The notes beneath the pieces are model-generated. The model was not told where the DNA came from and did not search any database. It saw only the letters and a program-made list of their open reading frames with translations. A program made the translations under genes and the position numbers. Of a stretch of 64,000 nt of DNA, positions 928 through 19,310 are shown piece after piece; the stretch's first letter is position 1, and each line of letters opens with the position of its first letter. The stretch comes from Candidatus Woesebacteria bacterium (GTDB lineage Bacteria > Patescibacteriota > Microgenomatia > UBA8517), in contig CP066693.1 of assembly GCA_016432525.1 (NCBI GenBank), forward strand, positions 224,815 to 288,814, read 5' to 3'.

Positions 928-1605
928 TCAAATAAATTTCTTAACTAATTTTGCTGATTTTCCCCAATATGGAATATCGTAGGCTCTAATAATACCCATG
1001 CGTTTTCTACCAGTTTTTTGTAATATTTCCATTGCAAATTTATGTCTGAAACTGATGACGGGGTAAGGGGAAAGAACACAAATCATTTTTCTTGGAGTCA
1101 CTCGCAATCCTTTTTCTATATTCACTCTCCCCATTTCTCCACTTAAATGAGCTGGCGTGCCATTGGGGAATTTAGCATATCTTTCCTCCAAAGCTTCTAT
1201 TGTTAATTCTCTGGGTGCTATCATTGTACAATTTCCAATGCGATTATTCATTGAATAAGTTGGTTCGCCAAAAGTGAAAAGTGCCCATCTATGCATGTTG
1301 TATGCAAAGGTATCCATCGGAGGTCTGTAAAAACTATAATGACCTTTTGGATATAAAGTATCATCATCAGCGATACCAATATAAGGAGTTTTAGCTGCCT
1401 TAGCACCTCTTAAAACTTGAAAAAAGACATTTGAAACACTCTCCGGTTCTGTTTGAATTATATTCATTCCCCATTTCATCGGTTTTCTTGAAATGGTAAT
1501 AATAGGGTAACCTTCTGCTGCTTCAAGTAACTTTTTTTTATGGTACCGCGCCCATTTTTCAGGAACTTTATTTTGAGTTAGCATTATTATGGTTAGATCT
1601 GGCAT
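928..1605 (-). CDS. Putative GT-A-fold glycosyltransferase (DxD motif ADDD); paralog of 4007..4687
   Basis: 225 aa. N-terminal M-DLTIIM, PIITISRKPMKWG, ADDDTLYP and C-terminal PYWG blocks are shared with the 226-aa product of 4007..4687. Only 2 nt separate it from the upstream gene. Confidence 0.45.
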   Translation of the reverse strand: MPDLTIIMLTQNKVPEKWARYHKKKLLEAAEGYPIITISRKPMKWGMNIIQTEPESVSNVFFQVLRGAKAAKTPYIGIADDDTLYPKGHYSFYRPPMDTFAYNMHRWALFTFGEPTYSMNNRIGNCTMIAPRELTIEALEERYAKFPNGTPAHLSGEMGRVNIEKGLRVTPRKMICVLSPYPVISFRHKFAMEILQKTGRKRMGIIRAYDIPYWGKSAKLVKKFI

Positions 1606-1607
1606 AT

Positions 1608-2393
1608 TTAGGAATTATACTCCCATTTATAATCTCCTCTTAAATAGCAATCTTTAGCTGTGGTAGCTTTCTTTTTTATATCTAATATAGATAGTCTTTC
1701 GCCGTTTAAAAATCTTTTTTCCAATTCTTCAACCGAAATGCCAGTTATATGGCTTGGAAAATCGGTTTGCACCTGATTTGCAATGTTGTTTATTATTTTA
1801 GGTTTATCAAAACAAATCGTTAAAGAACGATTCGGAGGATTAGCCCATAACGCACCTTCCAAAAAATTGGGATTTTTCATATCATTTACCTCTATAATTG
1901 TAAGGATATCTTCTCTTTTAAAGATATGTCCTCCCACTGCCATCGGATAGCCCCAATTGCGTAAGCGGTGATTATACAAATTTCCTCCTTTGGCGTACGG
2001 TCTCCATTCCCATTTATTACTCTTTAATATTGGTTGATTTTTATATCGGTAATTTGGAGCCATTCTTAAACTCAAAGTCAATATATCTGGATTTTTTTTA
2101 AATTCATTAAACTCCGGACAATTTTCCTGAAAAGGATTTATCATAACATCATCATCAACTAAAAAAAATATGTAATCCGTACCGTTTTTTATAAGTTCTA
2201 GTAGTTGTATTTTAAAGTCGTAACGCAAAACAAAATTAACTGAAGGATACATTTTAATTAATTTGTCATATCCTGCCTTAAATGGGGGATCATAAAAATA
2301 AAGAACATTCACTGGAATTGATAGACCTCTTAGTAAAAGCTCTAGTTGGCAAGCTCTATTTCTGCTGAATGCAATTGTGGTGATTTCTGGCAT
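1608..2393 (-). CDS. Glycosyltransferase, GT-A fold (LVDDDVM DxD motif)
   Basis: 261 aa with FFLVDDDVMINP in a nucleotide-diphospho-sugar transferase-like arrangement. Reading-frame-coupled to neighbours. Confidence 0.5.
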   Translation of the reverse strand: MPEITTIAFSRNRACQLELLLRGLSIPVNVLYFYDPPFKAGYDKLIKMYPSVNFVLRYDFKIQLLELIKNGTDYIFFLVDDDVMINPFQENCPEFNEFKKNPDILTLSLRMAPNYRYKNQPILKSNKWEWRPYAKGGNLYNHRLRNWGYPMAVGGHIFKREDILTIIEVNDMKNPNFLEGALWANPPNRSLTICFDKPKIINNIANQVQTDFPSHITGISVEELEKRFLNGERLSILDIKKKATTAKDCYLRGDYKWEYNS

Positions 2394-2396
2394 ATT

Positions 2397-2684
2397 TTAT
2401 AAGTGTAATAAATTATGAAAATTGCTTAGTACTGTAGTGTATGGCTTCTCCCGGTTGAAATCTATACGGTATTTAAATAAGGGATATATTTCACGAAATC
2501 TAAATTTTCTTTCCGTCCCCGGATTTGTATCATGAACAACAATATAATCTGCTGAATTTGTTAATCTTTTTATTTCCTCTTTTCTTCTTGATGGAGGATC
2601 ATGGTCCACTAAAACCACACTCCAGTATCCTGTCATATCAATTTTATTCCAGTCCTCAACGAGATGAATTTCATGGTAATCGTT
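2397..2684 (-). pseudogene. N-terminally truncated paralog of the adjacent SAM-dependent methyltransferase (C-terminal half only)
   Basis: In-frame translation upstream of the annotated Met continues to a stop at 2685-2687. It reads VEDWNKIDMTGYWSVVLVDHDPPSRRKEEIKRLTNSADYIVVHDT, which aligns with residues ~80-140 of the 165-aa methyltransferase (VANWDEVDISSHMGVVFIDHMPSIRRGIDAIRFRNLADYIVLHDT). The glycine-rich SAM-binding motif I is absent. Confidence 0.55.
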
Positions 2685-2694
2685 TTAAACTTTA

Positions 2695-3192
2695 CTAGGA
2701 TGGCTTTAATTCTAAAAACGATAAATCTTTAAAATTACTTACTACAGAAACCCAACCAAGAGCTTCTTTCCATGTATATTGATATTTAAAATGCGACCAC
2801 ATTGTTTCATAACCATATTTTGTTCCTTCTGTATCATGCAATACAATATAATCAGCTAAATTTCTAAATCTAATTGCATCTATGCCACGTCTTATTGAAG
2901 GCATGTGGTCTATAAATACAACTCCCATATGGGATGAAATATCTACTTCATCCCAGTTGGCTACGAATTTAATTCTGTGGAGTTTGCTTTGATATTGCCT
3001 GGCAAAATTGTAGTATTCTGGATCACTTTCCAAGCTTATTAAACGTCGATTCATGTCCCTACATAGCCAATGAAGAAGTGGCGTACTATAGATTCCAGTT
3101 CCTAGTTCTACGATATCTCCTTCACTTTTTAGAAGGATATTAACCAAAATAGCCATATAGGATGTATATCTTTTACCTAAATTTATTTTCAT
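2695..3192 (-). CDS. Class I SAM-dependent methyltransferase
   Basis: 165 aa. VELGTGIYSTPLL is a glycine-rich motif I, followed by acidic motif II and FIDH motif. Confidence 0.65.
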   Translation of the reverse strand: MKINLGKRYTSYMAILVNILLKSEGDIVELGTGIYSTPLLHWLCRDMNRRLISLESDPEYYNFARQYQSKLHRIKFVANWDEVDISSHMGVVFIDHMPSIRRGIDAIRFRNLADYIVLHDTEGTKYGYETMWSHFKYQYTWKEALGWVSVVSNFKDLSFLELKPS

Positions 3193-4004
3193 TATTTTAC
3201 TCCATATCTATTAAATATTTTTACTAATCTTTCAGGTAGAATTTGTACACCGACTCTATTTTTGCCTCGTAAAAAGAAATCGAGTTGGTCGGGACGTGGA
3301 TTTCCAGGATTTATTGGCCTTGGAGCGAAATGGAAATGTGCCACCCTGATTGGTTTTAACGCAGCAACGTAATTTGAACCGACATTGAAGGAGTGGAAGT
3401 TATAGGTTATGTTTGCTTTTTTAATTCTTTCATAAATGTTTTTAGCTAAAGGTATTTTAGGGGAGGGATAACTTTTAAACCATTTTTGAGGACTATGACA
3501 ACAATAGCTAACTCTTGTTAGCACACAAAAAGCCTTTTCTTCATCGATTTGATATTTATACATAATATTTTTAATCGAATTAAAAATATCTTCTGATGAA
3601 TCTTTAAAAAAGAAACTTCCAGTGCTCCATTTTGGATATCGGCCAAAATCTGGCAGTAAAATATCTACCTTGTCAAATTCTAACTCAGATTCTGCAAAGT
3701 TAATTAATTGGTAAGCATCAAGATCATGAAACCAATATATTGTTCCTTTTTCAATTAATTTTCGTTCCAATAAATTAATGATGACGTTAATTTTGCTTGC
3801 TGCCGGACAAAAAGGGCAAAAATTTTCATCTCCTATTACAAACGACTTAACTCCATTGTATTCGTACGCAAAATTGGTTACTAATAGTAAGTCTTGTCTT
3901 TTCCATCCCAAATCTAAACTATTGTCAATTTGAATTTTTACTGCAATTTTTCCCTCATCATCAAAGTCCCTTTTGGGGTTTATATAAATTAATAAATTTT
4001 TCAT
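3192..4004 (-). CDS. Conserved hypothetical protein (unknown family; paralog of 5577..6308; possible sugar transferase)
   Basis: 270 aa. Shares QIDNSLDLGWK, VTNF.EYNGVK, HD.DA, GSFFFKD, NITYNF and HFH blocks with the 243-aa product of 5577..6308. Confidence 0.5.
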   Translation of the reverse strand: MKNLLIYINPKRDFDDEGKIAVKIQIDNSLDLGWKRQDLLLVTNFAYEYNGVKSFVIGDENFCPFCPAASKINVIINLLERKLIEKGTIYWFHDLDAYQLINFAESELEFDKVDILLPDFGRYPKWSTGSFFFKDSSEDIFNSIKNIMYKYQIDEEKAFCVLTRVSYCCHSPQKWFKSYPSPKIPLAKNIYERIKKANITYNFHSFNVGSNYVAALKPIRVAHFHFAPRPINPGNPRPDQLDFFLRGKNRVGVQILPERLVKIFNRYGVK

Positions 4005-4006
4005 CC

Positions 4007-4687
4007 CTAATGTCTATAGCCAATGTCATAATATTTTTTTCTAAAATCAGATCCAGATCCCCAATAGGGGAGCTTATGCCGATCTAATCTATCAGAATGG
4101 GTATAATGCCGCATGCTTTGAGATGTTTTTATCTGAACAACGGCATTTTTAGTCTCATAAAACTCAATTTCATTTTGTAAAAATACATCCTCTTGTTTTT
4201 GATGAGTACGCTCTTTTGGGAAATTTTTTTCTTCAACTGACCAATCTGGAGCACCTTCAAAAAGTTTATTCAAAGTTTCCAGATAAAATTTAGTTCCTAC
4301 AATTTGTGCATGAGTTGCCCCTTCTTCTTTTTTCCAAAAAAATGCCCGATACGTAGGCATTACATACAAATTTCTATTGCGAAAGCATCGATCATCTCTT
4401 TTTGGAATAAATTGAAAATAATCTGGTGGATATAAACAATCAGCTTCGGCAGAAAGTATGAAGCGAGTTTTTACCTCTCGACAAGCAATTTGAACTTGTC
4501 TAAACATATTAAATCCAGATGCTCCAACATCTCCAACGCAAATATTCTTACCAAAGTCGATTGGTTTTTGGGTAACACTAATAATTGGCAATTTGCCACA
4601 AACCTTTAAAATATTATCTCTAATTCTTTGTTCAAATTCAGGTTTCTCACGATTGGATGAATAATAAATAATTGTTACATCACCCAT
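4007..4687 (-). CDS. Putative GT-A-fold glycosyltransferase (paralog of 928..1605)
   Basis: 226 aa. M-DVTIIYYSS, PIISVTQKPIDFG, AEADCLYP and PYWG blocks parallel 928..1605. Confidence 0.45.
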   Translation of the reverse strand: MGDVTIIYYSSNREKPEFEQRIRDNILKVCGKLPIISVTQKPIDFGKNICVGDVGASGFNMFRQVQIACREVKTRFILSAEADCLYPPDYFQFIPKRDDRCFRNRNLYVMPTYRAFFWKKEEGATHAQIVGTKFYLETLNKLFEGAPDWSVEEKNFPKERTHQKQEDVFLQNEIEFYETKNAVVQIKTSQSMRHYTHSDRLDRHKLPYWGSGSDFRKKYYDIGYRH

Positions 4688-4689
4688 TG

Positions 4690-5553
4690 CTATATTTTAA
4701 ATTCTTTCGCATATTCAGAAAGTGCTAAATGCCAATCACGCATTTCTGAGAGTCCAGTTTTAGTAAGCTTTTTGTCACTTAAAACCTCCGATCTGGTATG
4801 AGGGCACTGAAGAGGGAATAGCTTAAAATATTCATTATAAGTAACAGGAATAAGTTCAATTTTTTTAGAAAGCCCTAAAATAGAAACAAACTCCTTAAGA
4901 ACTTCAAAGCGACTCGCCTCTCCCTTTCCAGGGCAGTTATAAGTTCCAAAGGAAGGTTTTTTTTCAACAATATTTTTCAAAGTTTTAGCAAAATCCATTG
5001 TATAAGTTGGGTTACCATAAACATCAGAAATTCCATATATCTTTTTCGCGTCTAATTTTATTTGTTTATAAATTTTATTGACAAACTTTTTATCAACAAG
5101 AGGTCCTCCTCCCATAGCCCATCCGCTTCTTATAATGTAGTGTTTAGGATATGTTTTGACTGCAACTTCGCCATAATATTTACTTCTACCATAGTGATTA
5201 ATAGGATCAGCTGTATCGTTCTCGGAATAAATTTTTTTCTTGCCGTTAAAAATCCCAGCAGTACCAATATATACAATAGGAATGTCTAAAATTTTTGCAA
5301 GCTCAACCATATTTTGGGTTCCAGTGTGATTTGTTAAATATGCGTCAGTTGGATTAAATTCTGCTTTAAAATGATCAGTTTCAGCAGCCAAATGAAGTAT
5401 TAAATCTATTTTTCGGGAAGCATAGGACGTTACTTGCTTTATGTTTCGGACATCGAGCTCAATACTTCCGGTTACAATTAAATCATGGTTATTAAACACC
5501 TTTTTAACTGAGGTGCCTAACATTCCATTAGCGCCGGTGATTAAAACTTTCAT
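4690..5553 (-). CDS. RmlD-like NAD(P)H-dependent sugar-nucleotide 4-reductase (dTDP-4-dehydrorhamnose reductase family SDR)
   Basis: 287 aa. MKVLITGANGMLG N-terminal Rossmann motif, HLAA, and YGRSK catalytic Y-x3-K are typical of RfbD/Cap5F/FnlB-type reductases. Confidence 0.75.
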   Translation of the reverse strand: MKVLITGANGMLGTSVKKVFNNHDLIVTGSIELDVRNIKQVTSYASRKIDLILHLAAETDHFKAEFNPTDAYLTNHTGTQNMVELAKILDIPIVYIGTAGIFNGKKKIYSENDTADPINHYGRSKYYGEVAVKTYPKHYIIRSGWAMGGGPLVDKKFVNKIYKQIKLDAKKIYGISDVYGNPTYTMDFAKTLKNIVEKKPSFGTYNCPGKGEASRFEVLKEFVSILGLSKKIELIPVTYNEYFKLFPLQCPHTRSEVLSDKKLTKTGLSEMRDWHLALSEYAKEFKI

Positions 5554-5576
5554 TTTATAATGTAATCATTTCAAGC

Positions 5577-6308
5577 TTAGCTTATTCCATGGTATTTAAA
5601 AATCTTTATCAAACGCTCGCTCATTAAAGGCATATTAAGACCATTTTTGCCATACATAAAAATATCAAGAGTGGGAAGTCGCCTGCTAAAGGGGTGAAAA
5701 TGTACAATCCGTATCGGCTTAATTGCTCTTTCATAATTTGACTCAACATTCCTCATCCCAAAGTTATAAGTTACATTAAGTCTTTTGCATCTTTCAGAAA
5801 TTGCAGGATCTTGAGTCAGCTCCATCATTACAGTCTCATCTTCAATATCCTTAAAAATCTCTGGCCTTGTTTTTACAAAAATATCCTTGCTATTGTCCTT
5901 AAAAAAGAAACTGCCCATGCACCATCTAGGCCTCCAACCATAATCAGTAAGTCCGCAATCTATATTATCAAGCTCTAACTCTTTTTCTGTTATGGATGAA
6001 TTTTGAATTGCATCAGAATCATGATTCCAGTATATTTTTCCTTTTTCCACTATCTTCTCATCAATTAAAAAGGGGATAATAGCAGTCTTAATTGAACGAG
6101 GCCTCACAGCACAAAAATGTTCATCGGGAACTATAATTGCTTTTACGCCATTATATTCCCAGGAAAAATTTGTAACTACCAAAATATCTTTTGGCTTCCA
6201 TCCCAAGTCCAGACTGTTATCAACTTGTAGTCTAAATTCAGTAACATAAGGATCACCAAATTTTTTCTGTGGAGAAATAAAAACTAATAAATTTTTTAAA
6301 TTTTCCAT
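5577..6308 (-). CDS. Conserved hypothetical protein (paralog of 3192..4004)
   Basis: 243 aa with the same conserved blocks as 3192..4004 (QVDNSLDLGWK, VTNFSWEYNGVK, HDSDA, GSFFFKD, VTYNF, HFH). Confidence 0.5.
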   Translation of the reverse strand: MENLKNLLVFISPQKKFGDPYVTEFRLQVDNSLDLGWKPKDILVVTNFSWEYNGVKAIIVPDEHFCAVRPRSIKTAIIPFLIDEKIVEKGKIYWNHDSDAIQNSSITEKELELDNIDCGLTDYGWRPRWCMGSFFFKDNSKDIFVKTRPEIFKDIEDETVMMELTQDPAISERCKRLNVTYNFGMRNVESNYERAIKPIRIVHFHPFSRRLPTLDIFMYGKNGLNMPLMSERLIKIFKYHGIS

Positions 6309-7078
6309 TTAGGTCTAATTTCCTTTTCATAATACTCCTCCCAAATTCTTAAAGAATAAGCCCAACATTCCTCATTTTTGGAAGGGTTCTCAGCTGTTCC
6401 ATTGTTGTGAGTCCTTGGAAAATCTCTGTGTCTATGAGCATGCCAAGTGTTTTTGTCTATCATCAATTTACCCCCGGCTTTCCAGGTTTTAAATACCATT
6501 TCGTGGCTATCTTGATAATGGGGGCCATAACCTTCATTTTCAAGCTCCCCAATGACTTTGTCCCACCAAGCTCGCCTCATTACCCAACAGGACCCTTGCA
6601 TTGCCATAGATTCTTGAATCGGCTGAGTTGGATCTCCAGGAGCTTCAACTCCTGAGAATTTTCTAACTCCAGGTGCCATGTTAACAATCTTAAGCTTCAT
6701 GAAATCAACTGGTGGTATATTCATAACTTCCCATTTTGTGGGATCAAGGAAATATCGTCTTGGGGTGATGATCCAGTTTGGTTGGCAATCGCGGGTTAAA
6801 ATGACATCATAACCCTTGCCAAACATCTGATGTTCATCGTTGCGCATTAAAAATTCGCCTCTCGAAATTGCGACACCAGCATTAATTGCACGCCTCATTC
6901 CGCGATTTTTGCCAAGATGGAGGACTCTCACTCTTTCTTCATTTTTTATCGGGGTACTTGGCCAGTAACCATCAAGGACAGCAATAATTTCTATTTCTCC
7001 CTCGGCATTTTCAAGAAGTGAATCAATGGTCTTGTGGAGTAGGGGATCTTTATAAGATGGAATTACGACTGAAAGCAT
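6296..7078 (-). CDS. Family 2 glycosyltransferase
   Basis: 260 aa. N-terminal VVIPSYKD, DG and GKNRGMRRAINAGVAISRGEF match the GT2 signature. It is the first gene of the minus-strand operon. Confidence 0.8.
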   Translation of the reverse strand: MLSVVIPSYKDPLLHKTIDSLLENAEGEIEIIAVLDGYWPSTPIKNEERVRVLHLGKNRGMRRAINAGVAISRGEFLMRNDEHQMFGKGYDVILTRDCQPNWIITPRRYFLDPTKWEVMNIPPVDFMKLKIVNMAPGVRKFSGVEAPGDPTQPIQESMAMQGSCWVMRRAWWDKVIGELENEGYGPHYQDSHEMVFKTWKAGGKLMIDKNTWHAHRHRDFPRTHNNGTAENPSKNEECWAYSLRIWEEYYEKEIRPKWKI

Positions 7079-7121
7079 TTGCAGTGATTATATGACACTC
7101 TTGACTCATTCGCTAGTATCT

Positions 7122-7267
7122 AAGGCCGTTGTATATGGGCCAAAAATAGTCGTTATCACAAGAAGAAATAGCATGACTTAATAGATTACGAGAACGTTCT
7201 TTAGAAAAAATAAATTACCCAAAAAAATAATATTGGCTTCATCTCAAGCCGTTTATATGGGCAAAAA
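7122..7267. repeat. Two copies of a ~22-25 bp imperfect direct repeat in the operon's upstream region
   Basis: AAGGCCGTTGTATATGGGCCAAAAA at 7122-7146 and AAGCCGTTTATATGGGCAAAAA at 7246-7267, about 125 bp apart in the 260-bp intergenic region. Possible regulator binding sites. Confidence 0.4.
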
Positions 7268-7338
7268 CTCCTTTCAGAGAATCACAAAAACCGCTCTCAA
7301 AGATAAACGGGAGAGCAGGCTCTGATCCAAAAATAACA

Positions 7339-7947
7339 CTAAAATACATTGTGGAAGTAATCGTATCTTAGTTGCACACGCTTATCCCAGTTGCCTGGGA
7401 ATCCAGAATCTCCCTTAGTGTAACGAAACGAACTCGTGTCTGTATCTTCTCTCATGATAAACCACTTTCCATCCTTATTTGTAAATCCATAGTAAGTGAT
7501 AACATTATCATCAATCTCAGAAATCCTATATCCATCTGTAGGTTGAAGTTGAGCTGGATCAATTTTATTACCATTGATATCTTCTAAAGCAGTCGTTGCG
7601 GGTCCTGTCACTTTTCCAAAAAATGGAACTTGGGTTCTTTTACCAAGAATTGAAAAGAGGAAAAAAGAAAGACCCGCAGCCCCAATAACCTTAAGAAATC
7701 CTCGCTTGTCGATATCGGAAACCTCTTCCTCTTTTTGAATACTTACTGACGGCTTGACTTTGACAATCGACAATTTTGACATCTTATGATCCTTGTCTAA
7801 AAAAGCCTTAAGAGCAAAATAAACAAGCCCTGGATAAAGAACAATAGCAACAGCTAGTTGGACGTAGGTTGTAGCAGTTACAAACATTGCAATTACTACA
7901 AGACTGGAAATTAAAAAGCTGGAATAAACCAAAAACTTACGCATCAA
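7339..7947 (-). CDS. Membrane-anchored hypothetical protein
   Basis: 202 aa with two N-terminal hydrophobic helices. Overlaps the upstream gene's stop by 4 nt. Confidence 0.45.
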   Translation of the reverse strand: MMRKFLVYSSFLISSLVVIAMFVTATTYVQLAVAIVLYPGLVYFALKAFLDKDHKMSKLSIVKVKPSVSIQKEEEVSDIDKRGFLKVIGAAGLSFFLFSILGKRTQVPFFGKVTGPATTALEDINGNKIDPAQLQPTDGYRISEIDDNVITYYGFTNKDGKWFIMREDTDTSSFRYTKGDSGFPGNWDKRVQLRYDYFHNVF

Positions 7948-9032
7948 TTTGGTTCTCCTATATCTATATATATTGCCGATATAAAACCTGTAGAACCGTC
8001 TGTTAATTTAATTCCAAACCATCCTTTATGTTCCGAAATAAGTTCGAAGCTGTCACCATCACGAGCTTCACCGATCTTATCTGATTGGATTGATGGCTTT
8101 TGACGAATATTCACACTCATCACTCCATCTGTAATTTTAACTATTACTCTCGGTTTTGGAGAATCTGTAGGTTTAACAGATTCTGAAAGAACCTGTGAAG
8201 AAATTGGAGTGGGTGAAACTGTAGAATTTTTGTGTACAGAAGCATCAATGTTTCTTATTCCCAAAAAAAGAAGAACAAAGAAAACCCCCGTAGCTGTAAA
8301 TAGTTCAGCCAATCTAGATAAAGGTTTTAAACCTAATCTTTTAAGGTATCTCCTTTCAAGTTGCTTTTGATCATTAGATTCTACTTTTTCCTCGTTGGCT
8401 TTGTATTTTTCAACTAATTCTTCGTAGCCACCAGCAGAAGTTATTTTTGGTTTGATCCAAGCAGTTTCCCTTAACCCCAAATATTCAGGATAAGACGAAT
8501 AACCATCCTTACTATGAAGCTTGCAAGTAAACTCCAAAAGTTTACTCTCCGTTATCTGGCTAGACTTATAAGGTCCAGCGAACAAAGAACCTTTACGCTG
8601 GTATTTTTTATTAAAGTACATTGAATATCTAGTGCAAAGTGATCTCATAAAATTTTCGATAGACTTTTTTATAGTTTGATTCAAAATTAAGTGGAACTCC
8701 GAAGGTGTCAAATAATAGGCAATAAGCTCAACTTTGTCGAAATAATTTTTTGGCAAATGAGGTACGCCTTTATACATACGACCTTTCACTTTAAAAACTT
8801 TTTTGTTAATCTGGAGGTCGAGTGGAGAAGACAAATAGTCTCTCAAATAACCGATAAAGATTTCATAATCTTTTGAATCTTTAAAAATTATCTTATCCTC
8901 AATACCATTATTGTGAATATGAAAATATACGTTTTCTTTGCTTTTACTTGAAAGGTCCTTGGCAAGCATAATTAAAGTTAACTTGTAAGAAGAATCCTTG
9001 CAAGTATGTATCTTAGAGTATAACTGTAACAA
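7944..9032 (-). CDS. IS200-like (HUH/Y1 transposase-like) domain protein fused to a transmembrane segment and a C-terminal SH3b domain
   Basis: N-terminal ~190 aa match the REP-associated/IS200-like pattern: YFHIHNNGIEDKIIFKDSKDYEIFIGYL, AYYLTPSEFHLIL, FMRSLCTRYSMYFNKKYQRKGSLFAGPYK. The HUH motif is degenerate (E-F-H). Then comes the hydrophobic helix GVFFVLLFLGI, and C-terminal VNIRQKPS...GWFGIKLTDGSTGFISAIYI is SH3b-like. Confidence 0.6.
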   Translation of the reverse strand: MLQLYSKIHTCKDSSYKLTLIMLAKDLSSKSKENVYFHIHNNGIEDKIIFKDSKDYEIFIGYLRDYLSSPLDLQINKKVFKVKGRMYKGVPHLPKNYFDKVELIAYYLTPSEFHLILNQTIKKSIENFMRSLCTRYSMYFNKKYQRKGSLFAGPYKSSQITESKLLEFTCKLHSKDGYSSYPEYLGLRETAWIKPKITSAGGYEELVEKYKANEEKVESNDQKQLERRYLKRLGLKPLSRLAELFTATGVFFVLLFLGIRNIDASVHKNSTVSPTPISSQVLSESVKPTDSPKPRVIVKITDGVMSVNIRQKPSIQSDKIGEARDGDSFELISEHKGWFGIKLTDGSTGFISAIYIDIGEPN

Positions 9033-9100
9033 ACCATCTAATTTTTAAAGCCATTGCATTCAAAGTTCATTCTTTTAGAATAAATATATACTTAAATAAG

Positions 9101-9475
9101 ATGAAACAAGAAAATAAACTTAAAGGTTCAAAAGGAGAAAACATAGCAAGGGTATATCTTCAAAATAAAGGTTACAAAATTATTGATCAGAATTTTGAAA
9201 ACAAATTTGGAGAACTCGATTTAATAATGAGTAAAGAAAATACCCTGATTTTTATTGAAGTAAAATTAAAAACAGGTGACGATTTTGGATCTCCAGAAGA
9301 AATGATTAATTCGCACAAATTAAGACAAATTCAAAATACTGGAGTATCATATCTCCAAAAATTTCCTGAAATAGATAATTTATACGCACAAAAACAAATA
9401 GACGCTGTTTGCATAGTTCTGGGACCAAAGGGTAAGGTAATAAGAATAAATCATTACGAAAATATAACCTTTTGA
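9101..9475 (+). CDS. yraN: YraN family (UPF0102) putative endonuclease
   Basis: 124 aa. ARVYLQNKGYKIIDQNF..GELDLIM...LIFIEVK is the characteristic YraN core. Confidence 0.75.
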   Translation: MKQENKLKGSKGENIARVYLQNKGYKIIDQNFENKFGELDLIMSKENTLIFIEVKLKTGDDFGSPEEMINSHKLRQIQNTGVSYLQKFPEIDNLYAQKQIDAVCIVLGPKGKVIRINHYENITF

Positions 9476-13600: not shown

Positions 13601-14172
13601 ATGAGCTTCCTTAAGCCTCTAACACTAACTCTTGTAATCTCTATTTTAATTTTATTTTTAATAAATCTTTTTCAAAACATAAAATCACAATCCTCAAAAC
13701 TAGTTATAGATTCAATACCAAAAACAGAAGTTTTTATTGACGGAAACAGAATCGGGGAAACTCCAGTAAGTGAAATATCCAAAAAAGAGGAAGTTCAAGT
13801 CAAATTAAAAAAAGACGATCTCTCATATGAAAAATACATAACTCTAACAAAGGGAGTTGAAACAATCTTGAAGATTTCTTTAAATCAGGATATTCACAAA
13901 ACCGAAGAACAGATTCTAACTCTTGAAGCCACTGGTGAAAAAAAATCATCTATTTCTCTAACAACAGAGCCAGATGGAGTTCAAATTTATTTAGACGGAA
14001 ATTTGTAGGTGTTAGTCCACAAAAAATTGTAAACATAGAACCATCTATCCATGAAATAACCATGCTAAAAGACGGATTCAATCAAAAAGAGGTTACTATT
14101 AAAACCACCGAAGGCTATACTCTCGATTCTTTCGCTAAACTAGCCAGTAGCGATTCCTCCGTACAAAATTAA
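13601..14172 (+). pseudogene. PEGA-domain secreted protein interrupted by a single-base frameshift in a T-run (~14002-14004)
   Basis: ORF 13601..14008 ends ...GVQIYLDGNL*. The next frame continues (F)VGVSPQKIVNIEPSIHEITMLKDGFNQKEVTIKT to a stop at 14170-14172. Restoring one T gives the PEGA consensus Y.DG.FVG.SP. This is either an authentic frameshift or a homopolymer sequencing error. Confidence 0.5.
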
Positions 14173-15102
14173 AACAACCATTAATATCCAAACAATAACC
14201 GAAGAGACTAAAGCGACATCTTTAAGAAGAAGTTTTTCAGGCGCCTCAGCTCGTCCCTCAAAAATTAAAGCCTCATATCTCATAATGCCAAAAATAGTAA
14301 CAGGAATTGTAATCATTAAAAGTTTTGTTATAGTTGTAGCTTTAGAAATCTCAGCCAAGAAAATCCAAAGTGGAGTAGAAGAGGATGGCGACTCAAAGAA
14401 AGTAAACAAAGCCCAAGCAATCCAAGAAGCACTTCCAAACATAGTGACATAAGAGTTCAAAAGTTCAGGGCTGTATTTTGCCAAAGATTTTCTTGTTTGT
14501 CCGCTTGTTCCCATTACACCAAGCTCAGCCCTTCTTTTTCCTGATGCCAAAAACAGAGCTGTTGATATAACACAAAGTAAAAACCACACTGATAAATGTG
14601 CATCAATTGCAAATGCTCCAGCATAAACTCTAATTACAAATCCCGATGCAATAATTAAAATATCAATTACAGCCAAATTCTTCAAAAACAAAGAATATGC
14701 AACTTGCAACACAAAATAAAAGATTACAAGAATAAAAAATAAATAAGGAAGATGATAAGAAATTTTAAGCGACATCGCGACTAATACGATAAGTTCTATT
14801 ACTGCAAAGGAAATAGGTATTTTTCCAGAGGCGATAGGCCTATTTTTTTTGATTGGGTGAAGTCTGTCTCTTTTTGCATCAATTAAATCATTAAAAATAT
14901 ATGTCGCACTTGTAATGAAATTAAACGCCAAAAATGCCCAAAATACGTAAATAAATCTAGCTCTCCAAAATAATTGTCCTGAAAAAACTAGTGCGGCGAA
15001 AATTGAAAAATTTTTGACCCAATGAATAGGTCTGGCAACAGTAATTAAAGAGTAAAGAGAAAATTTAGTATTTATTTTTTTAACTGTCGGTGTGTTAGCC
15101 AT
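14140..15102 (-). CDS. UbiA-family polyprenyl-phosphate prenyl/phosphoribosyl-transferase (decaprenyl-phosphate phosphoribosyltransferase-like)
   Basis: 320 aa polytopic. YIFNDLIDAKRDRLHPIKKNRPIASGKI carries the NDxxDxxxD plus RP.ASG signature. Confidence 0.7.
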   Translation of the reverse strand: MANTPTVKKINTKFSLYSLITVARPIHWVKNFSIFAALVFSGQLFWRARFIYVFWAFLAFNFITSATYIFNDLIDAKRDRLHPIKKNRPIASGKIPISFAVIELIVLVAMSLKISYHLPYLFFILVIFYFVLQVAYSLFLKNLAVIDILIIASGFVIRVYAGAFAIDAHLSVWFLLCVISTALFLASGKRRAELGVMGTSGQTRKSLAKYSPELLNSYVTMFGSASWIAWALFTFFESPSSSTPLWIFLAEISKATTITKLLMITIPVTIFGIMRYEALIFEGRAEAPEKLLLKDVALVSSVIVWILMVVLILYGGIATG

Positions 15103-16145
15103 AAAATAAGCCCTCCAACAAATATTGCTACTCCGACTATTGTATAGAACTTATTCCGACTGTTCAAATTTAAAGCCACAACCCCAAGTAAAGAAGTTGC
15201 AAACCAATAAAAATAAGCCACTTGTCTTTTACTAAGCCCCGCATCCAGTAGTCTATGGTGCAAATGCCCTCGATCTCCCCAAAAAGGGGATTTTCCACTC
15301 AGTACTCTTCTAATTAATACATATCCCGTGTCAATTAAAGGAATTGCCAAAACAACAGCCAAAACTCCAACTTTCGTGGTAGATATTATCGATAAAATTG
15401 CAAGTATATATGCTCCCAAGTTAGATCCTCCGAATGAGGGCATTATTTTTTGAGGATAAATATGATATGGCAGAAAACCTAAAAATGCGCCAGCTAAAAT
15501 TACTGCAAGTATCAAAACAACAAGCTGGCTCGGGTCATTTATAAATTTTAAAGACAAAAAAGCAATGGTAAGAGCCGAAATAACCATCACTCCAGATAGT
15601 TGTCCATCAACTCCTTTAGCTCCAAAATTAACTGCGTTCATCATATAAACTATCCAGAAAATTGCAAACAAAGAAGACAAAATCCATATTGAATGCATTC
15701 CATAAAAATCAAAAATAATTTTAGGATTTGATAAATCTATTATTTTTCCATTTATTGGGTTGGTCACAAAAGAAATTCCAATCCCTGCTAAAACAGGAAA
15801 AAGCGCAGCTACAAACTGCAGCCCTAATCTAAGATAGGGGCTCAAATCATATTTATCATCCAAAAGCCCTACGATAGTTATAAGTATTGCTCCCAGAAGA
15901 ATTCCCAAAATGTGTTTATCAATTGGCAAAAACAAAAAAACAGAAATCAAAATTGCCAAAAATACTGCAAGTCCACCTCCTCGGGGGACAGGGTAAGTGT
16001 GTATTACTTTAATATGTTTATGCTTTTTAGGATCATCGATAATATTCAATCTCCAGGCAAGTTTAATTACTAAGGGAGTTATTAAATAAGAAAAAATTGA
16101 AGCAAAAACTAAAGGGGCTAAAAAAATTCTTATAAAAAGATCCAT
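15072..16145 (-). CDS. MraY/WecA-family polyprenyl-phosphate N-acetylhexosamine-1-phosphate transferase (GT4 family)
   Basis: 357 aa polytopic. VPRGGGLA, GLLDDKYDL (DDxxD) and G..D.Q match the family. Confidence 0.8.
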   Translation of the reverse strand: MDLFIRIFLAPLVFASIFSYLITPLVIKLAWRLNIIDDPKKHKHIKVIHTYPVPRGGGLAVFLAILISVFLFLPIDKHILGILLGAILITIVGLLDDKYDLSPYLRLGLQFVAALFPVLAGIGISFVTNPINGKIIDLSNPKIIFDFYGMHSIWILSSLFAIFWIVYMMNAVNFGAKGVDGQLSGVMVISALTIAFLSLKFINDPSQLVVLILAVILAGAFLGFLPYHIYPQKIMPSFGGSNLGAYILAILSIISTTKVGVLAVVLAIPLIDTGYVLIRRVLSGKSPFWGDRGHLHHRLLDAGLSKRQVAYFYWFATSLLGVVALNLNSRNKFYTIVGVAIFVGGLILWLTHRQLKK

Positions 16146-16477
16146 TAAAGTTTTGCTATTAAAAAAAATATTCTTAAAATCGTAATTACAGAAAGAAGAG
16201 TTAAAACTATAGAAGTGCCTTTAAATATTTTCCCTAAAAACTTGTTACTTAGTTTTTTGTCTGCAAAAAAATTGAAAGCCACAAACACAATTGAAACAAT
16301 CAAAGGCATAATTAAATAATTACTCTTCGCAAGTTGTTGCTCTCCAATTGCTCTCCCATACAAGAGTGGCACTTCAGGAGGAAGGTTATTCCTAAAAATA
16401 AACAAAAATACCAAAACAATGAAATTCACCAAAAATAAAGTCCCAAAAAACCAATCTCTTTTTATGTCGAAAATCAT
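16145..16477 (-). CDS. Small membrane protein (hypothetical)
   Basis: 110 aa with three TM helices. Shares its start/stop nucleotide with the downstream gene. Confidence 0.4.
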   Translation of the reverse strand: MIFDIKRDWFFGTLFLVNFIVLVFLFIFRNNLPPEVPLLYGRAIGEQQLAKSNYLIMPLIVSIVFVAFNFFADKKLSNKFLGKIFKGTSIVLTLLSVITILRIFFLIAKL

Positions 16478-16511
16478 GCCTTATTTTACCATTTCTATTG
16501 GCATTATCACC

Positions 16512-17984
16512 CTAAAGCTTCGTATTTAATCTCCAAATATTTGCCCCATCTAATTGGAGAACATTGAAGTAATTTCTAGCCAAAAAACTATAAAGTTCAG
16601 GGAAGTTATCAGAATTAGGCAAAACAACAATATACGCAGGTTTATTCTTATTAAGAGCCGATATCACGTCTCCATGTGTTGTAAAGTCATTAATATGATA
16701 TGGTGCAACATATTTTAATGGTGGAAGTCTTCTTGAAAGAGCATAAATTGGCGGAGAATCACCCCAAACAAAAACTTTAGTCCCGGGCATTGTAGTTTTT
16801 GACAAAAAATCAGAAACCATATAGTTTCTGATTACGTTTCCATCAAACTCGGAAAAATACTGCTGCTTAGTTATTCTTCCTGTCGCAAAGCTTAAAAATC
16901 TATTGTAATACGAAATAGTATTATAGTGATAATACTTATAATAAACAGGAACCAGAAGAGCCAAGAAAAGTGGAATTATGGCAAAACTTTGCTCAATATT
17001 TTCATACCCTATTAAAATTGCAACAAGAATTGATGCTGGTGCCGCAACCTGTAATAAATAATGAGGATATGGCCTTTCAGATAAAGTAGCAGCAAAAAGT
17101 GAAGTCAAAAGCCAAACTGTTCCCAAAATAAAAGGAAGGCTCAATTTCTTTCTTTTTATAAAAAGGATTATTGTTCCAATTAAAACAATTGCTCCTCTTC
17201 CTAAAAGTGGTGCATTTCGAACCAAGAATGGTTTTTGTATATCTCCAGGCCTAAACGAAGAAAGATAACCCACATTTTCCAGATATGCAGCTTTAATATA
17301 ATCAAATAAAGCCCCTTTGGTATAATACCAGACAAAAAAGAAAATTATTGGAACCAAAAATGCAACAGAAATAATTAAAGTTTTTCTAATAATGTCTTTT
17401 TTATTTTTCTCAGTTATAAAAAAGTACAAAATTAAGGCTGGTAAATCAAAAGCCGCAGGGATTTTAAAAAGAGCAGCCAAAGAGAATAGTATTCCAGCTA
17501 CAATCAAAGCCCAATTCTTTTTATATCTTAGTGCAATAAAAAATCCTAAGATAATAAACCCAATCAAAAAATTCTCTGCATTAACAATATTTCCCTCCAA
17601 AAGAGGAAGAGTAGTGATAATTGCAAAAAATGTTGTCGCAGCTTTTTGAAGTTTTTCTTTTTTAGGAAACATCATCAAAGTTAGCTTCCAAAATGCATAA
17701 ACAGTCACCAAACTCCAAAAAAGCAAGATTGCTTTAAAAGATACTAAACTTCCAGAAAAACCTGCCAGATAATACAAAAGAGGCGGCTTGTTGTCGTGGA
17801 TATCCTTGTAAAGTGTCAATCCTTGCCTTACCCCTGTGCCCAGCGTCATATAAATCATCTCATCTCCATAGGAGTAAGGCTCAAAAAGTGAAGGGATTCT
17901 AAAAATGACCACGAATGCCAAAACCAAAACTACCCAAGCCGGAGCATGAATTTTCTGTAAAAATTTATTCATTTTGTAAACCAA
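16512..17984 (-). CDS. GT-C fold glycosyltransferase, ArnT/PMT-like (GT39/GT83)
   Basis: 490 aa polytopic. N-terminal PYSYGDEMIYMTLG...KPPLLYYL matches the DE..Y and KPPL.YW hallmarks of ArnT/PMT-like enzymes. Confidence 0.65.
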   Translation of the reverse strand: MVYKMNKFLQKIHAPAWVVLVLAFVVIFRIPSLFEPYSYGDEMIYMTLGTGVRQGLTLYKDIHDNKPPLLYYLAGFSGSLVSFKAILLFWSLVTVYAFWKLTLMMFPKKEKLQKAATTFFAIITTLPLLEGNIVNAENFLIGFIILGFFIALRYKKNWALIVAGILFSLAALFKIPAAFDLPALILYFFITEKNKKDIIRKTLIISVAFLVPIIFFFVWYYTKGALFDYIKAAYLENVGYLSSFRPGDIQKPFLVRNAPLLGRGAIVLIGTIILFIKRKKLSLPFILGTVWLLTSLFAATLSERPYPHYLLQVAAPASILVAILIGYENIEQSFAIIPLFLALLVPVYYKYYHYNTISYYNRFLSFATGRITKQQYFSEFDGNVIRNYMVSDFLSKTTMPGTKVFVWGDSPPIYALSRRLPPLKYVAPYHINDFTTHGDVISALNKNKPAYIVVLPNSDNFPELYSFLARNYFNVLQLDGANIWRLNTKL

Positions 17985-19291
17985 ATAAGCTTAAGATCAC
18001 CAAAATTTTTTACTTCACTTTCATTGTAACCAGGTAATTTAACTTCTTCAACAGGTCCTGAAGTAATTACTCCAATTCTGATGTATCTCTTTTTAGGTAA
18101 TTGATTCACGATATCAACTTTCTCCATTAAAGCAGTCCCAACAAAATAGGGAAGAGCGCCTCCCGGATTATAAATAGGAGCAGGTATTCCATAATATTTA
18201 GACTCCCACAAGTGGTGTGCAGTACCATTCCAGTTAATTAAATAATCATCGCCATGTTTAACTTCTTTAACATAGTCTGAAAATTCTCGAAATGGTAATT
18301 TAGTGGGGTGCGTAAAGTAATTAAAATCAATAACCAAAAACATAGCAATTATAGCTCCCAATAAAATTATATGAATCTTTCGGGTATTTGAGCTCAAAAG
18401 TATCATCGACGCAGGAATGGAGTATAAAAGATATCTATTATAAAAAATTGAACTAAATTTCTGAGAAATTCCAAATGCTAAAAGTATTGGAATCAAAAAC
18501 CAGCTTAATACAAATAAACTTTGTTTTAAATTCTGCCTCCATTTTCTTAAAACTAGTCCTAAAATCACTAAAATCAAGGCATAATCCGAAAGTTTATTAG
18601 AAATTCCAGTAGCTAAATAATCATAAATTAACCGCCTTAAATCAAGAAGCGTCGGTCTTCCAAGCCAAAATCCACTTCCTACCATTTTTGTTTGTGCATA
18701 TAAAAATGGAAGCCAGGGAAGATATAAAATCCCAACAGCTATAAAAGACAAAAACATTTGTCTAATTAGTTTTCTCTTCTTAATCTTGGCCGCCCCATGT
18801 GCAGGTTTAATAAGTTCATACAAAAACCAAAATCCCTGAACAAATAAAGCAAAAAAGGCAAAATGATGGCTGTATAAAGCAAAAAGTGTCGCAACAATAT
18901 AAGCTTTCCAATTTCTCCTCAAAAAAAAGTACATTGAAGCAACAACTCCCAAAGCTAGAATAGAATACATCCTGCCTTCAAAGGCATAGATAAAAAAGAA
19001 AGGATTAAAAAAGCTAAACAAAGCTGCTAGAATTCCTGTTTTTTTGCCCCACAAAAAAGAGGCGATTTTATAAACAAAAAAGATAGCGATACAGTAATAA
19101 AAAAAAGATAATCCTCTGATTACAATCTCAGAAGTCCCAAACAATTGAAATGCAATATGCTCAGTAATGTTATATAAAGGTGGGGAAGTGTCATGGGAAA
19201 TAATTTTTAAAATATCTGGAAGGCTTTTCATCGACAAAATCGCCGAAAAAGCCTCATCTCCCCAGATACTAACATTAAACTGATTGAGCAT
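17969..19291 (-). CDS. GT-C fold glycosyltransferase, ArnT/PMT-like (second paralog)
   Basis: 440 aa polytopic with N-terminal WGDEAFSAILS...SPPLYN. Confidence 0.55.
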   Translation of the reverse strand: MLNQFNVSIWGDEAFSAILSMKSLPDILKIISHDTSPPLYNITEHIAFQLFGTSEIVIRGLSFFYYCIAIFFVYKIASFLWGKKTGILAALFSFFNPFFFIYAFEGRMYSILALGVVASMYFFLRRNWKAYIVATLFALYSHHFAFFALFVQGFWFLYELIKPAHGAAKIKKRKLIRQMFLSFIAVGILYLPWLPFLYAQTKMVGSGFWLGRPTLLDLRRLIYDYLATGISNKLSDYALILVILGLVLRKWRQNLKQSLFVLSWFLIPILLAFGISQKFSSIFYNRYLLYSIPASMILLSSNTRKIHIILLGAIIAMFLVIDFNYFTHPTKLPFREFSDYVKEVKHGDDYLINWNGTAHHLWESKYYGIPAPIYNPGGALPYFVGTALMEKVDIVNQLPKKRYIRIGVITSGPVEEVKLPGYNESEVKNFGDLKLIWFTK

Positions 19292-19310
19292 TAACTAAAG
19301 TGTAGCAAAT

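Follow-up and report, generated by a model that had tools for sequence, protein, structure and literature searches.

The subject of this analysis is a minus-strand gene (7944..8969) in a stretch of 64,000 nucleotides (nt) from a Candidatus Woesebacteria genome (assembly GCA_016432525.1, contig CP066693.1, positions 224,815 to 288,814 of the forward strand), which is called the window here and in which positions are counted from the first letter. The coding sequence specifies a protein of 341 amino acids (aa) composed of a degenerate HUH domain resembling that of REP-associated tyrosine transposases (RAYTs), a linker, a transmembrane (TM) helix, a spacer rich in Pro, Ser and Thr, and a bacterial SH3 (SH3b) domain. 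It is well supported that this protein is a domesticated, catalytically dead descendant of a HUH gene of the REP-associated type (class 2, RAYT/TIRYT-like) of Microgenomates-type bacteria of the Candidate Phyla Radiation (CPR). When this origin is taken together with a proposed mechanism, in which the protein would serve as a membrane-tethered hairpin-binding module and possibly as an envelope regulator similar to ToxRS, we assign the joint explanation a probability of roughly one half.

Gene start and domain architecture

The sequence-only reading of this DNA had described an open reading frame (ORF) at 7944..9032. This minus-strand frame is present in the ORF list of the window, but its TTG start at 9032 did not stand. 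Since all homologues start with MPAKN or MLAKD at the codon ATG 8969, and an identical NCBI protein with the name 'SH3 domain-containing protein [Candidatus Woesebacteria bacterium]' (P0001) has 341 aa, translation almost certainly begins at ATG 8969, from which residues are counted here. The 21 additional codons of the longer frame correspond to a promoter region and conserved non-coding element. In the databases, members of the family are named either 'SH3 domain-containing protein' or 'putative transposase'.

The HUH-fold domain comprises residues ~11-175 (8445..8939), as judged from an AlphaFold2 model, Foldseek and the alignment to ISDra2 TnpA. The single TM helix spans residues ~220-240 (8250..8312; hydropathy 2.16, helix 220-238 in the model), and the SH3b domain is located at 7965..8117. 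The AlphaFold2 model was built on 31 homologues and showed pLDDT values of 84-95 for residues 11-175 and of 85-94 for the SH3 part. At the C-terminus, SH3_3 (PF08239) was matched with E=1e-9 and 38.9 bits compared to a Pfam cut-off of 27, and the PDB entries 2krs and 4krt match this part by sequence, the former also by fold (Foldseek, TM-score 0.78). The combination of HUH fold, TM helix and SH3b domain that had been read from the sequence alone is therefore borne out by Pfam, hydropathy, AlphaFold2 and Foldseek.

One TM segment was found in 116 of 120 homologues. The mean number of Lys plus Arg residues flanking the helix is 3.0 on the N-terminal versus 1.8 on the C-terminal side (higher N-terminally in 79 proteins, C-terminally in 15), Pro, Ser and Thr are frequent in the segment following the helix, and the HUH domain has no signal peptide. 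Because of these features, the N-terminus is predicted to lie inside and the C-terminus outside, with a cytoplasmic HUH domain and an extracytoplasmic SH3b domain that is predicted to bind the cell wall. Some members of the family carry an additional N-terminal helix-turn-helix of the MerR/excisionase type (P0015, P0109, P0118; L089:868-1030), which is consistent with a cytoplasmic, DNA-facing N-terminus.

Sequence-profile searches of the PDB gave only marginal matches to ISDra2 TnpA (E about 0.04-0.06) and did not match the Escherichia coli TnpAREP structure 4er8, which made a comparison of folds necessary. By fold, the best PDB match of the N-terminal domain is ISDra2 TnpA (Foldseek probability 1.0, E=5.6e-5, target TM-score about 0.6-0.65), and further matches are IS608 TnpA and 4er8 (E=3e-4), such that the IS200/RAYT relationship suspected earlier was recovered by structure prediction. 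The match to the Pfam family Y1_Tnp (PF01797) is sub-threshold (20.5 bits versus a cut-off of 23) and covers profile positions 40-110 only, and the NCBIfam model of the REP-associated tyrosine transposase (NF047646) did not match the window protein at E<=1.

Loss of the catalytic residues

In the window protein, the HUH position reads E91-F92-H93 (nt 8699-8691), exactly the degenerate triad E-F-H that had been noticed before, and K150 (nt 8522-8520) aligns with the catalytic Tyr (Y132 of ISDra2, helix alphaD). The alignment of the family profile with ISDra2 TnpA pairs 'LmpnHfHLL' with 'MPDHVHLLL' and 'sryIh' with 'qYIe', which contains Y132. The residue four positions after the Tyr, Asn119 of E. 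coli TnpAREP, is a metal ligand in that enzyme (PMC3479197); the window protein has no Asn at this position and lacks the Y-x3-N-P motif. Hence, careful alignment did not reveal an intact HUH/Tyr set in the window copy.

To place these substitutions in the family, catalytic positions were counted in 154 distinct fused members (151 for Asn) and in 41 stand-alone paralogues (40 for Asn), with the Tyr+4 residue scored by an alignment-anchored count. The first His is present in 78% of the fused family (otherwise R, Q, S, E, C or N) and the second in 93% (otherwise D, N or K), compared to 40 of 41 stand-alone proteins in each case; some fused members have lost both (RFN, NFK, RFD). The catalytic Tyr is found in 59% of the fused proteins (Phe in 30, His in 19, also Ser and Lys) versus again 40/41, and the Asn in 11/151 versus 37/40. 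H-u-H and Tyr occur together in 79/154 fused versus 40/41 stand-alone members, while the complete set of H-u-H, Tyr and Asn is kept in only 3/154 versus 37/41. Moreover, the fused class has a deletion of about 15 residues following the Tyr motif. Apart from these positions, the N-terminal domain is the best-conserved part of the protein. Since the proteins with these substitutions are orthologues that share their genomic context, this conservation argues that catalysis is dispensable for the conserved function.

The 79 members with H-u-H and Tyr, together with the cognate-type palindromes flanking the HUH-coding part (see below), could also be taken to mean that a membrane-tethered REP/hairpin nuclease or transposase is still active, at least in orthologues with HFH and Tyr, and that the window copy is a decaying allele. 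However, the Asn ligand is missing in >90% of the members, the post-Tyr segment is deleted, Phe, His, Ser or Lys replaces Tyr in syntenic and otherwise intact-looking orthologues, and the window contains one copy of the gene and no dispersed copies of the palindrome. We consider residual activity very improbable. Neither do the relic hairpins rescue an active insertion sequence, because the copies are relics and the window has a single gene copy and no dispersed palindrome family. The gene was found once in the 64-kb window, where no sign of an active insertion sequence was seen, and no tnpB-like gene adjoins it according to the ORF list and Pfam.

The fused family and its stand-alone paralogues

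A genome scan with one genome per species yielded 80 loci with proteins of two classes, one long and one short; at 41 partner-positive loci a gene for a small membrane protein follows, and 39 are stand-alone loci. Proteins of the long class have 355-465 aa and the architecture of the window protein, so that homologues with HUH domain, TM helix and SH3b domain, for which a search of CPR genomes had been proposed, were found by the genome scan as well as by a library search. Proteins of the short class, a CPR-specific family, have about 227 aa, stand alone and carry 'NHFH', 'FQG', 'YIHLNP' and 'YSSY', which are the motif variants that Quentin et al. (PMC6006769) describe for subclass 2.1 of the TnpAY1 proteins. 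They exceed the Pfam Y1_Tnp cut-off (39-47 bits) and match the NCBIfam REP tyrosine transposase model with E~1e-11 and 43-45 bits, below its equivalog cut-off of 80. A single genome may contain several short paralogues, as in the Woesebacteria assembly with L036, L056 and L063; paralogues within genomes are divergent, not near-identical copies.

When the N-terminal domains were compared by neighbour joining, the partner-associated sequences grouped in a single clade (42 tips) that contains no short-class member, and the nearest short-class sequence is L036. The tree suggests a monophyletic fused lineage. Together with the free variation of catalytic positions among syntenic orthologues, the rarity of the full catalytic set and the conserved membrane tether, this strongly supports the earlier view of a domesticated HUH domain rather than a free transposase.

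A HMMER search of the whole library with the window N-terminal domain returned 168 cluster representatives (50% identity) with E<=1e-30, and nearly all of the 150 matches listed have 300-470 aa; therefore, the fused family is large. According to the sequence records, it occurs in Woese-, Levy-, Gottesman-, Davies-, Roizman- and Chisholmbacteria and in WWE3. Many third-party metagenome-assembled genomes with a CPR-type module (e.g. L006, L008, L012 and L014) are labelled 'uncultured Gammaproteobacteria bacterium' or 'Pseudomonadales'; gene content and a GC content of 31-46% suggest that these labels are unreliable.

The upstream element as proposed promoter and relic hairpin

The gene is preceded by a conserved 34-nt element (8975..9008, minus strand), which emerged only from the comparison of upstream regions of relatives. 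It scores 38.2 with a position weight matrix that was built from 31 sites and applied with a cut-off of >=20. With this cut-off, the element was found in 41 of 47 related loci, including about 10 outside the training set, and its CTTG is mostly located 35-36 nt from the ATG. The next-best match in the window scores 14.5. At the centre of the element is a 23-nt imperfect palindrome, CTTGCAAGGATTCTTCTTACAAG (9004-8982), 12 nt upstream of ATG 8969, with the core CTTGnAA-N9-TTnCAAG, in which the spacer is conserved, too. Comparing 150-nt upstream regions, the consensus of the long class is tACTTGCAAAGTCTCTyCTTTCAAGaTAnnnT, followed by ATG-CCT 5-6 nt further on. The sequence-only reading had stated that the gene is flanked neither by inverted repeats nor by subterminal hairpins, which was wrong given this widely conserved palindrome and a decayed copy at 8338-8360. 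A generic inverted-repeat search around the gene had returned chance-level pairs only and did not single out the true element.

The same element contains a -35-like TTGCAA (9003-8998), a 17-nt spacer and a -10-like TAACTT (8980-8975; minimal TAnnnT), and the ATG follows 5 nt after the -10 in the window. A Shine-Dalgarno sequence is absent at the start. Because the ATG sits where transcription would begin, we infer that the element is the promoter of a leaderless mRNA. A consensus promoter scan does not call this proposed promoter in the window, since its -10 matches only T1, A2 and T6. One relative (L089) lacks the palindrome at the proximal promoter and has just a remnant of it about 100 nt upstream.

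The stand-alone paralogues share the geometry of the upstream element, and we interpret the latter as the relic 5' hairpin of the ancestral RAYT-like gene. Short-class genes have long palindromes with stems of 11-19 bp at three fixed sites, at about -36, +176 and +685. The palindrome at -36 contains a TTGCA -35 in its left arm and a TATAAT-like -10 directly after its right arm, with the ATG 5-6 nt later, which suggests that it carries the promoter of a leaderless mRNA as well. The palindrome at +176 lies inside the coding sequence and encodes a beta-hairpin insert, while the one at +685 often holds the stop codon within its left arm. Copies match within a locus and differ between loci, and some loci have extra copies kilobases away; at locus L068, for instance, copies are found at 7926-7960, 8144-8170 and 8652-8680. 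Among 28 aligned 5' copies, both sides had changed in 9 of 12 pairs. This covariation was above all slid controls; depending on the measure, values as high were attained in 0-1 of 500 shuffles. Such palindromes correspond to the pattern of a RAYT with its cognate REP-like elements. Furthermore, the palindrome of L036, CCTTGCAAGG-TTTCT-CCTTACAAGG, is nearly identical to the long-class element.

At the window gene, relic imperfect palindromes are located at -36 and +609 nt; clear flanking or dispersed copies, as would be expected of a REPtron, were seen only around stand-alone paralogues. The window does not contain a REP-like repeat family, and its palindromes are near chance level (16 versus 6-12 in shuffles); a palindrome at 41459 was dismissed as it lies inside an ORF. 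No Rfam family matches 7000-9400. The beta-hairpin with the insert 'GxPHxPKNY' is conserved at residues ~57-76 of the window protein (nt 8742-8801). It is palindrome-encoded in the stand-alone paralogues; the window keeps the peptide, KVFKVKGRMYKG, and the DNA palindrome is gone. Apparently, a REP-like element was inserted into the gene and turned into protein.

The internal palindrome and the probable fusion joint

Many long-class genes contain a second copy of the element in inverse orientation, about 600-830 nt from the start and mostly near +650. A strict pattern finds this internal copy in 20 of 47 genes, and the matrix adds a few. It coincides with 'HLERRxLA', the sole conserved peptide of an otherwise variable juxtamembrane linker, which is encoded as CAY CTT GAA AGG AGA nnC CTT GCA AG in relatives. 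The Leu codon is CTT in every row that was found via the protein motif, compared to 27% CTT among Leu codons overall, and this fixation argues for constraint at the nucleotide level. In the window, the internal relic of the 3' palindrome, CTTGAAAGGAGATACCTTAAAAG, which also folds as single-stranded DNA (ssDNA), is located at 8338..8360 (minus strand), where it encodes L204-E-R-R-Y-L-K-R.

The 3' palindrome also provides a plausible origin of the fusion. Three stand-alone genes (L046, L050 and L072) end with CTT-TAA-AGG inside the palindrome, and the long class has CTT-GAA-AGG at the equivalent point when a deletion of ~15 residues after the Tyr motif is allowed for. As the 3' palindrome of the paralogues holds the stop codon, the fusion probably arose by loss of this codon, TAA to GAA, inside the palindrome, and 8338..8360 would then mark the joint where the ancestral stop codon lay. 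A pre-fusion state, in which a separate gene for a TM helix and SH3b domain follows a stand-alone gene, was not found among the stand-alone loci.

The internal element could alternatively act in RNA, as an mRNA stem-loop ahead of the TM-coding segment that is bound by the HUH domain and controls translation, mRNA stability or the ratio of soluble to membrane-bound protein. Indeed, the element is transcribed, its position some 15 codons ahead of the TM helix is conserved, and its synonymous sites are fixed. Nevertheless, HUH domains are known as ssDNA binders (PMC3479197, PMC6006769), the 5' copy would remain untranscribed if the mRNA is leaderless and yet is equally conserved, and roughly half of the loci, among them the window, lack the internal copy or keep it only in decayed form. 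Hence, we regard a role in RNA binding as quite improbable.

The partner protein

Directly downstream, a gene for a protein of 201 aa (7339..7944, minus strand) starts within the stop codon of the HUH gene (TGATG at 7946-7942). This partner has three predicted TM helices and a conserved C-terminal beta domain of ~85 aa that is predicted to be extracytoplasmic. In the 80-locus scan, a homologue follows directly wherever the protein is of the long class or has a degenerate HUH domain (41/41 partner-positive versus 0/39 stand-alone loci), and the same arrangement was seen at seven further loci. The pairing persists where the SH3b domain is lost and the TM helix kept: in L044 (1476-2402) and L079 (7986-8687), the HUH motif is fully degenerate (RFD and EFN, respectively), there is no SH3b domain and the partner gene is still next to it. 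The constant features of the module are thus the membrane tether and the partner rather than the SH3b domain.

The partner family comprises 352 homologues, all of them unnamed and none with a Pfam domain. For the window partner, neither Pfam nor NCBIfam gave a match above cut-off and PADLOC gave none; VirB3 was rejected as a sub-threshold Pfam match (17.2 bits versus 23.9), and the AlphaFold2 model of the partner found no fold match in the PDB (best E=0.08). Residues ~77-103 contain a conserved 'DxDKRxFLKxIGxAG' motif before helix 3, which is twin-arginine-like with K-R instead of R-R. In its layout the partner resembles the actinobacterial Rieske proteins with dual Sec/Tat insertion (PMC3471235, PMC5449189), which also have two N-terminal helices, a twin-arginine-like motif before helix 3 and a folded external domain. 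However, it differs from them in the K-R pair, and no cofactor domain was recognised.

Genomic neighbourhood

About 30 nt after the partner gene, a consensus scan detects a terminator-like hairpin (7310-7291) with a T-run (7283..7310, minus strand), probably the end of a two-gene transcription unit in the window genome. The next co-directional gene encodes a family-2 glycosyltransferase (GT2; 6296..7078, minus strand, Pfam). A GT2 homologue occurs in 35 of 48 module loci, mostly 20-200 nt downstream of the partner gene, and in none of the 39 stand-alone loci. In the window, the GT2 gene heads a cluster that continues with an RmlD-like gene (4690-5553) and several conserved ORFs, which are syntenic as well. 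Within 928-6308 (minus strand), five to six ORFs without Pfam match are located downstream of GT2, which are syntenic in 9-19 of 48 related loci and absent from stand-alone loci; two apparent paralogue pairs, the ORFs 4007 and 928 and the ORFs 3192 and 5577, match the same locus position in several loci. In relatives, epimerases, nucleotidyltransferases, methyltransferases and heptose-pathway-like genes are found at this position. At two loci, a gene with a dCache_1 domain, an extracellular sensor, lies on the opposite strand between partner and glycan genes (L086:8692-9651 and L087:8720-9670). On the other side of the module in the window, beyond dprA, a second envelope-glycan set (PEGA domain, UbiA prenyltransferase, GT4, PMT_2, GT2_3) is found at 13601-20801, and a nucleotidyltransferase gene is present on this side as well. 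With glycan genes on both sides, the module is embedded in a broad region for cell-surface biosynthesis.

Given this setting, the dead HUH domain might simply be a cytoplasmic protein-protein scaffold for glycan or cell-wall assembly that has no role in nucleic-acid binding, with palindromes that are nothing other than promoter and coding sequence. The strict synteny with GT2 and glycan genes, the constant membrane partner, the extracellular SH3b domain and the lack of a regulon-like spread of the palindrome all fit such a scaffold. In turn, it leaves unexplained why the internal palindrome is fixed at the codon level within a variable linker, why the promoter spacer is conserved and why helix-turn-helix domains are fused to the N-terminus. 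On this evidence a scaffold is unlikely, while it deserves the most weight among the rival explanations, followed by the RNA role, the residual nuclease and finally a function in competence.

The last of these goes back to the sequence-only reading, which had related the protein to DNA uptake because of nearby dprA and pilus genes. A membrane-tethered ssDNA-handling protein of the competence pathway, acting with DprA and pili, would agree with the position of dprA and yraN divergently upstream in the window and with the ssDNA binding of the HUH fold in relatives. However, among ~47 loci just one further genome has these two genes in the vicinity of the module, at a distance of about 7 kb (L042/L054), and the remaining neighbourhoods have different upstream genes. 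Furthermore, no pilus genes were seen within about 15 kb, and the HUH domain is predicted to be cytoplasmic with the SH3b domain outside. With the dprA adjacency not conserved, the DNA-uptake idea loses its only support and is hardly credible any more. L042 and L054 are two contigs of one assembly with identical module and surroundings, including dprA/yraN about 7 kb upstream, which represents either a duplication made by the assembly or a recent large duplication.

A proposed mechanism

The explanation we favour, a domesticated RAYT-like gene that became a membrane-tethered hairpin-binding module, can be formulated as follows. In the ancestral stand-alone gene, a form that survives in the same genomes as the ~227-aa paralogues with intact NHFH and YIHLNP motifs, the 5' palindrome would have carried the promoter and the 3' palindrome the stop codon. 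After the stop codon had been lost in one lineage (CTT-TAA-AGG to CTT-GAA-AGG), translation would have run into the TM helix and the SH3b domain. From then on, the catalytic positions (first His, Tyr and the metal-binding Asn) were free to vary, with conservation retained in the fold, in many polar surface residues and in both palindromes. In the present-day protein, the dead HUH domain would reside in the cytoplasm, tethered to the membrane. On the outside, at the cell wall, would be the SH3b domain and, contributed by the translationally coupled partner, a beta domain; both could supply an input from the envelope. Inside, the HUH domain may bind the relic imperfect hairpins, one at its own promoter and one within its own gene. 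Binding would result in autoregulation and perhaps in control of the co-directional GT2 glycan cluster according to the state of the envelope; the protein would neither cut nor move DNA. RAYTs have been reported to bind a hairpin only when it contains a mismatch or bulge (PMC3479197). The relic hairpins are taken as recognisable because they are imperfect palindromes, just as RAYTs recognise mismatched REP stems.

A more far-reaching version assumes that the transposase and both of its hairpins were co-opted together into a membrane-spanning device coupling the cell wall, via the SH3b domain and the external domain of the partner, to a DNA locus, at which the dead HUH domain binds hairpin or cruciform DNA, both at its promoter and within its gene, and thereby controls the surface-glycan cluster. 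We would not bet on this full version, which at present appears rather doubtful.

Several observations weigh against the favoured explanation. First of all, we infer the binding of hairpins by a dead HUH domain from its ancestry. The hairpins themselves are weak: as ssDNA, the upstream palindrome has -3.4 kcal/mol (z=-3.0 versus shuffled) and the internal copy -3.0 kcal/mol (z=-3.5), and the latter is decayed in the window, with a weight-matrix score of 14.5. The palindrome was not found in front of other genes of the window and only sporadically elsewhere in related loci, such that no regulon is visible there. The 5' element could be kept merely as promoter and operator for another factor, and the leaderless start is deduced from spacing only. 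Moreover, about half of the fused family has retained H-u-H together with Tyr, and the monophyly of the fused lineage comes from a simple neighbour-joining tree without support values, which is indicative only. Finally, the terminator-like hairpin separates the module from the GT2 gene in the window.

Relation to known systems and significance

Comparison with described HUH proteins helps to define what is specific for the module. With RAYT/TnpAREP proteins (4ER8; class 2, PMC6006769), the window protein shares the fold, the blocks YxHxxNxG and xHFHLL, the F[EQ]G strand and a C-proximal 'YSSY'; it is likewise encoded by a single-copy chromosomal gene with imperfect palindromes, and the ancestral-type paralogues have flanking and dispersed copies. 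It differs by E-F-H, the Lys in place of Tyr, the missing 'NP', the deletion of ~15 post-Tyr residues and the fused TM helix and SH3b domain. Furthermore, it does not match the NCBIfam RAYT model, and its palindromes are reduced to two relics, in promoter and coding sequence. Subclass 2.1 TnpAY1/TIRYT proteins have a HUH core with NH[YF]H, FQ and Y[IV]HLNP and C-terminal extensions, the tails being HTH-like (DnaA_C type), and no REPs were found around their genes (PMC6006769). The stand-alone CPR paralogues resemble them in NHFH, FQG, YIHLNP, SS and a C-terminal tail, but are flanked by inverted palindromic copies; in the fused form the tail is followed by the TM helix and SH3b domain, and the catalytic residues are lost. 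The transposases TnpA of the IS200/IS605 family (IS608, ISDra2) are the best structural matches, the HUH strand aligns residue by residue, and their recognition elements are subterminal imperfect hairpins. However, the window gene has no tnpB, no multiple identical copies, a Pfam score below cut-off and no Y-x3-Q motif, and it is not mobile. The class 2 TnpAY1 proteins are the closest known relatives. Because the window protein has no intact HUH motif, Tyr or 'NP' and stays below the cut-offs of the models, we do not file it under this class and regard it as a derived, non-catalytic offshoot.

ToxR and ToxS represent membrane one-component regulation, in which a cytoplasmic DNA-binding domain, a single TM helix and an external domain act with a small co-transcribed membrane protein. 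The window module may be compared with this pair in its layout only, i.e. a cytoplasmic module, one TM helix, an external domain and a small membrane partner with an external beta domain. In contrast to ToxR, Pfam and NCBIfam scans of the window protein gave no winged-helix (OmpR/PhoB-type) domain, and no relation in sequence or fold exists.

We found no description of an architecture with HUH domain, TM helix and SH3b domain in the literature, and the main survey of TnpAY1 proteins names no SH3 or TM fusions and no candidate phyla (PMC6006769). The unusual features are the retention of both recognition hairpins, a read-through fusion joint that can be mapped, and the membrane tethering together with an obligate partner. 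Many domesticated transposases have been described in eukaryotes, whereas they are rare and poorly understood in bacteria, with RAYTs as the main case. Here, the path of domestication is unusually legible in the sequence, where the type of ancestor, the exact fusion joint, the decaying active site and the two retained hairpins can all be recognised. If the more far-reaching version of the mechanism is true, the protein would be the first HUH-fold, hairpin-recognising transmembrane regulator, a conserved trait of CPR bacteria of the Microgenomates type. In addition, CPR bacteria yield here a promoter that is compact, conserved and apparently leaderless. With >=150 clusters at 50% identity the family is large, and it occurs exclusively in an uncultivated radiation. 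It is strictly paired with an uncharacterised membrane protein and heads clusters for surface glycans, in organisms whose surface is believed to be of central importance for the epibiotic CPR lifestyle.

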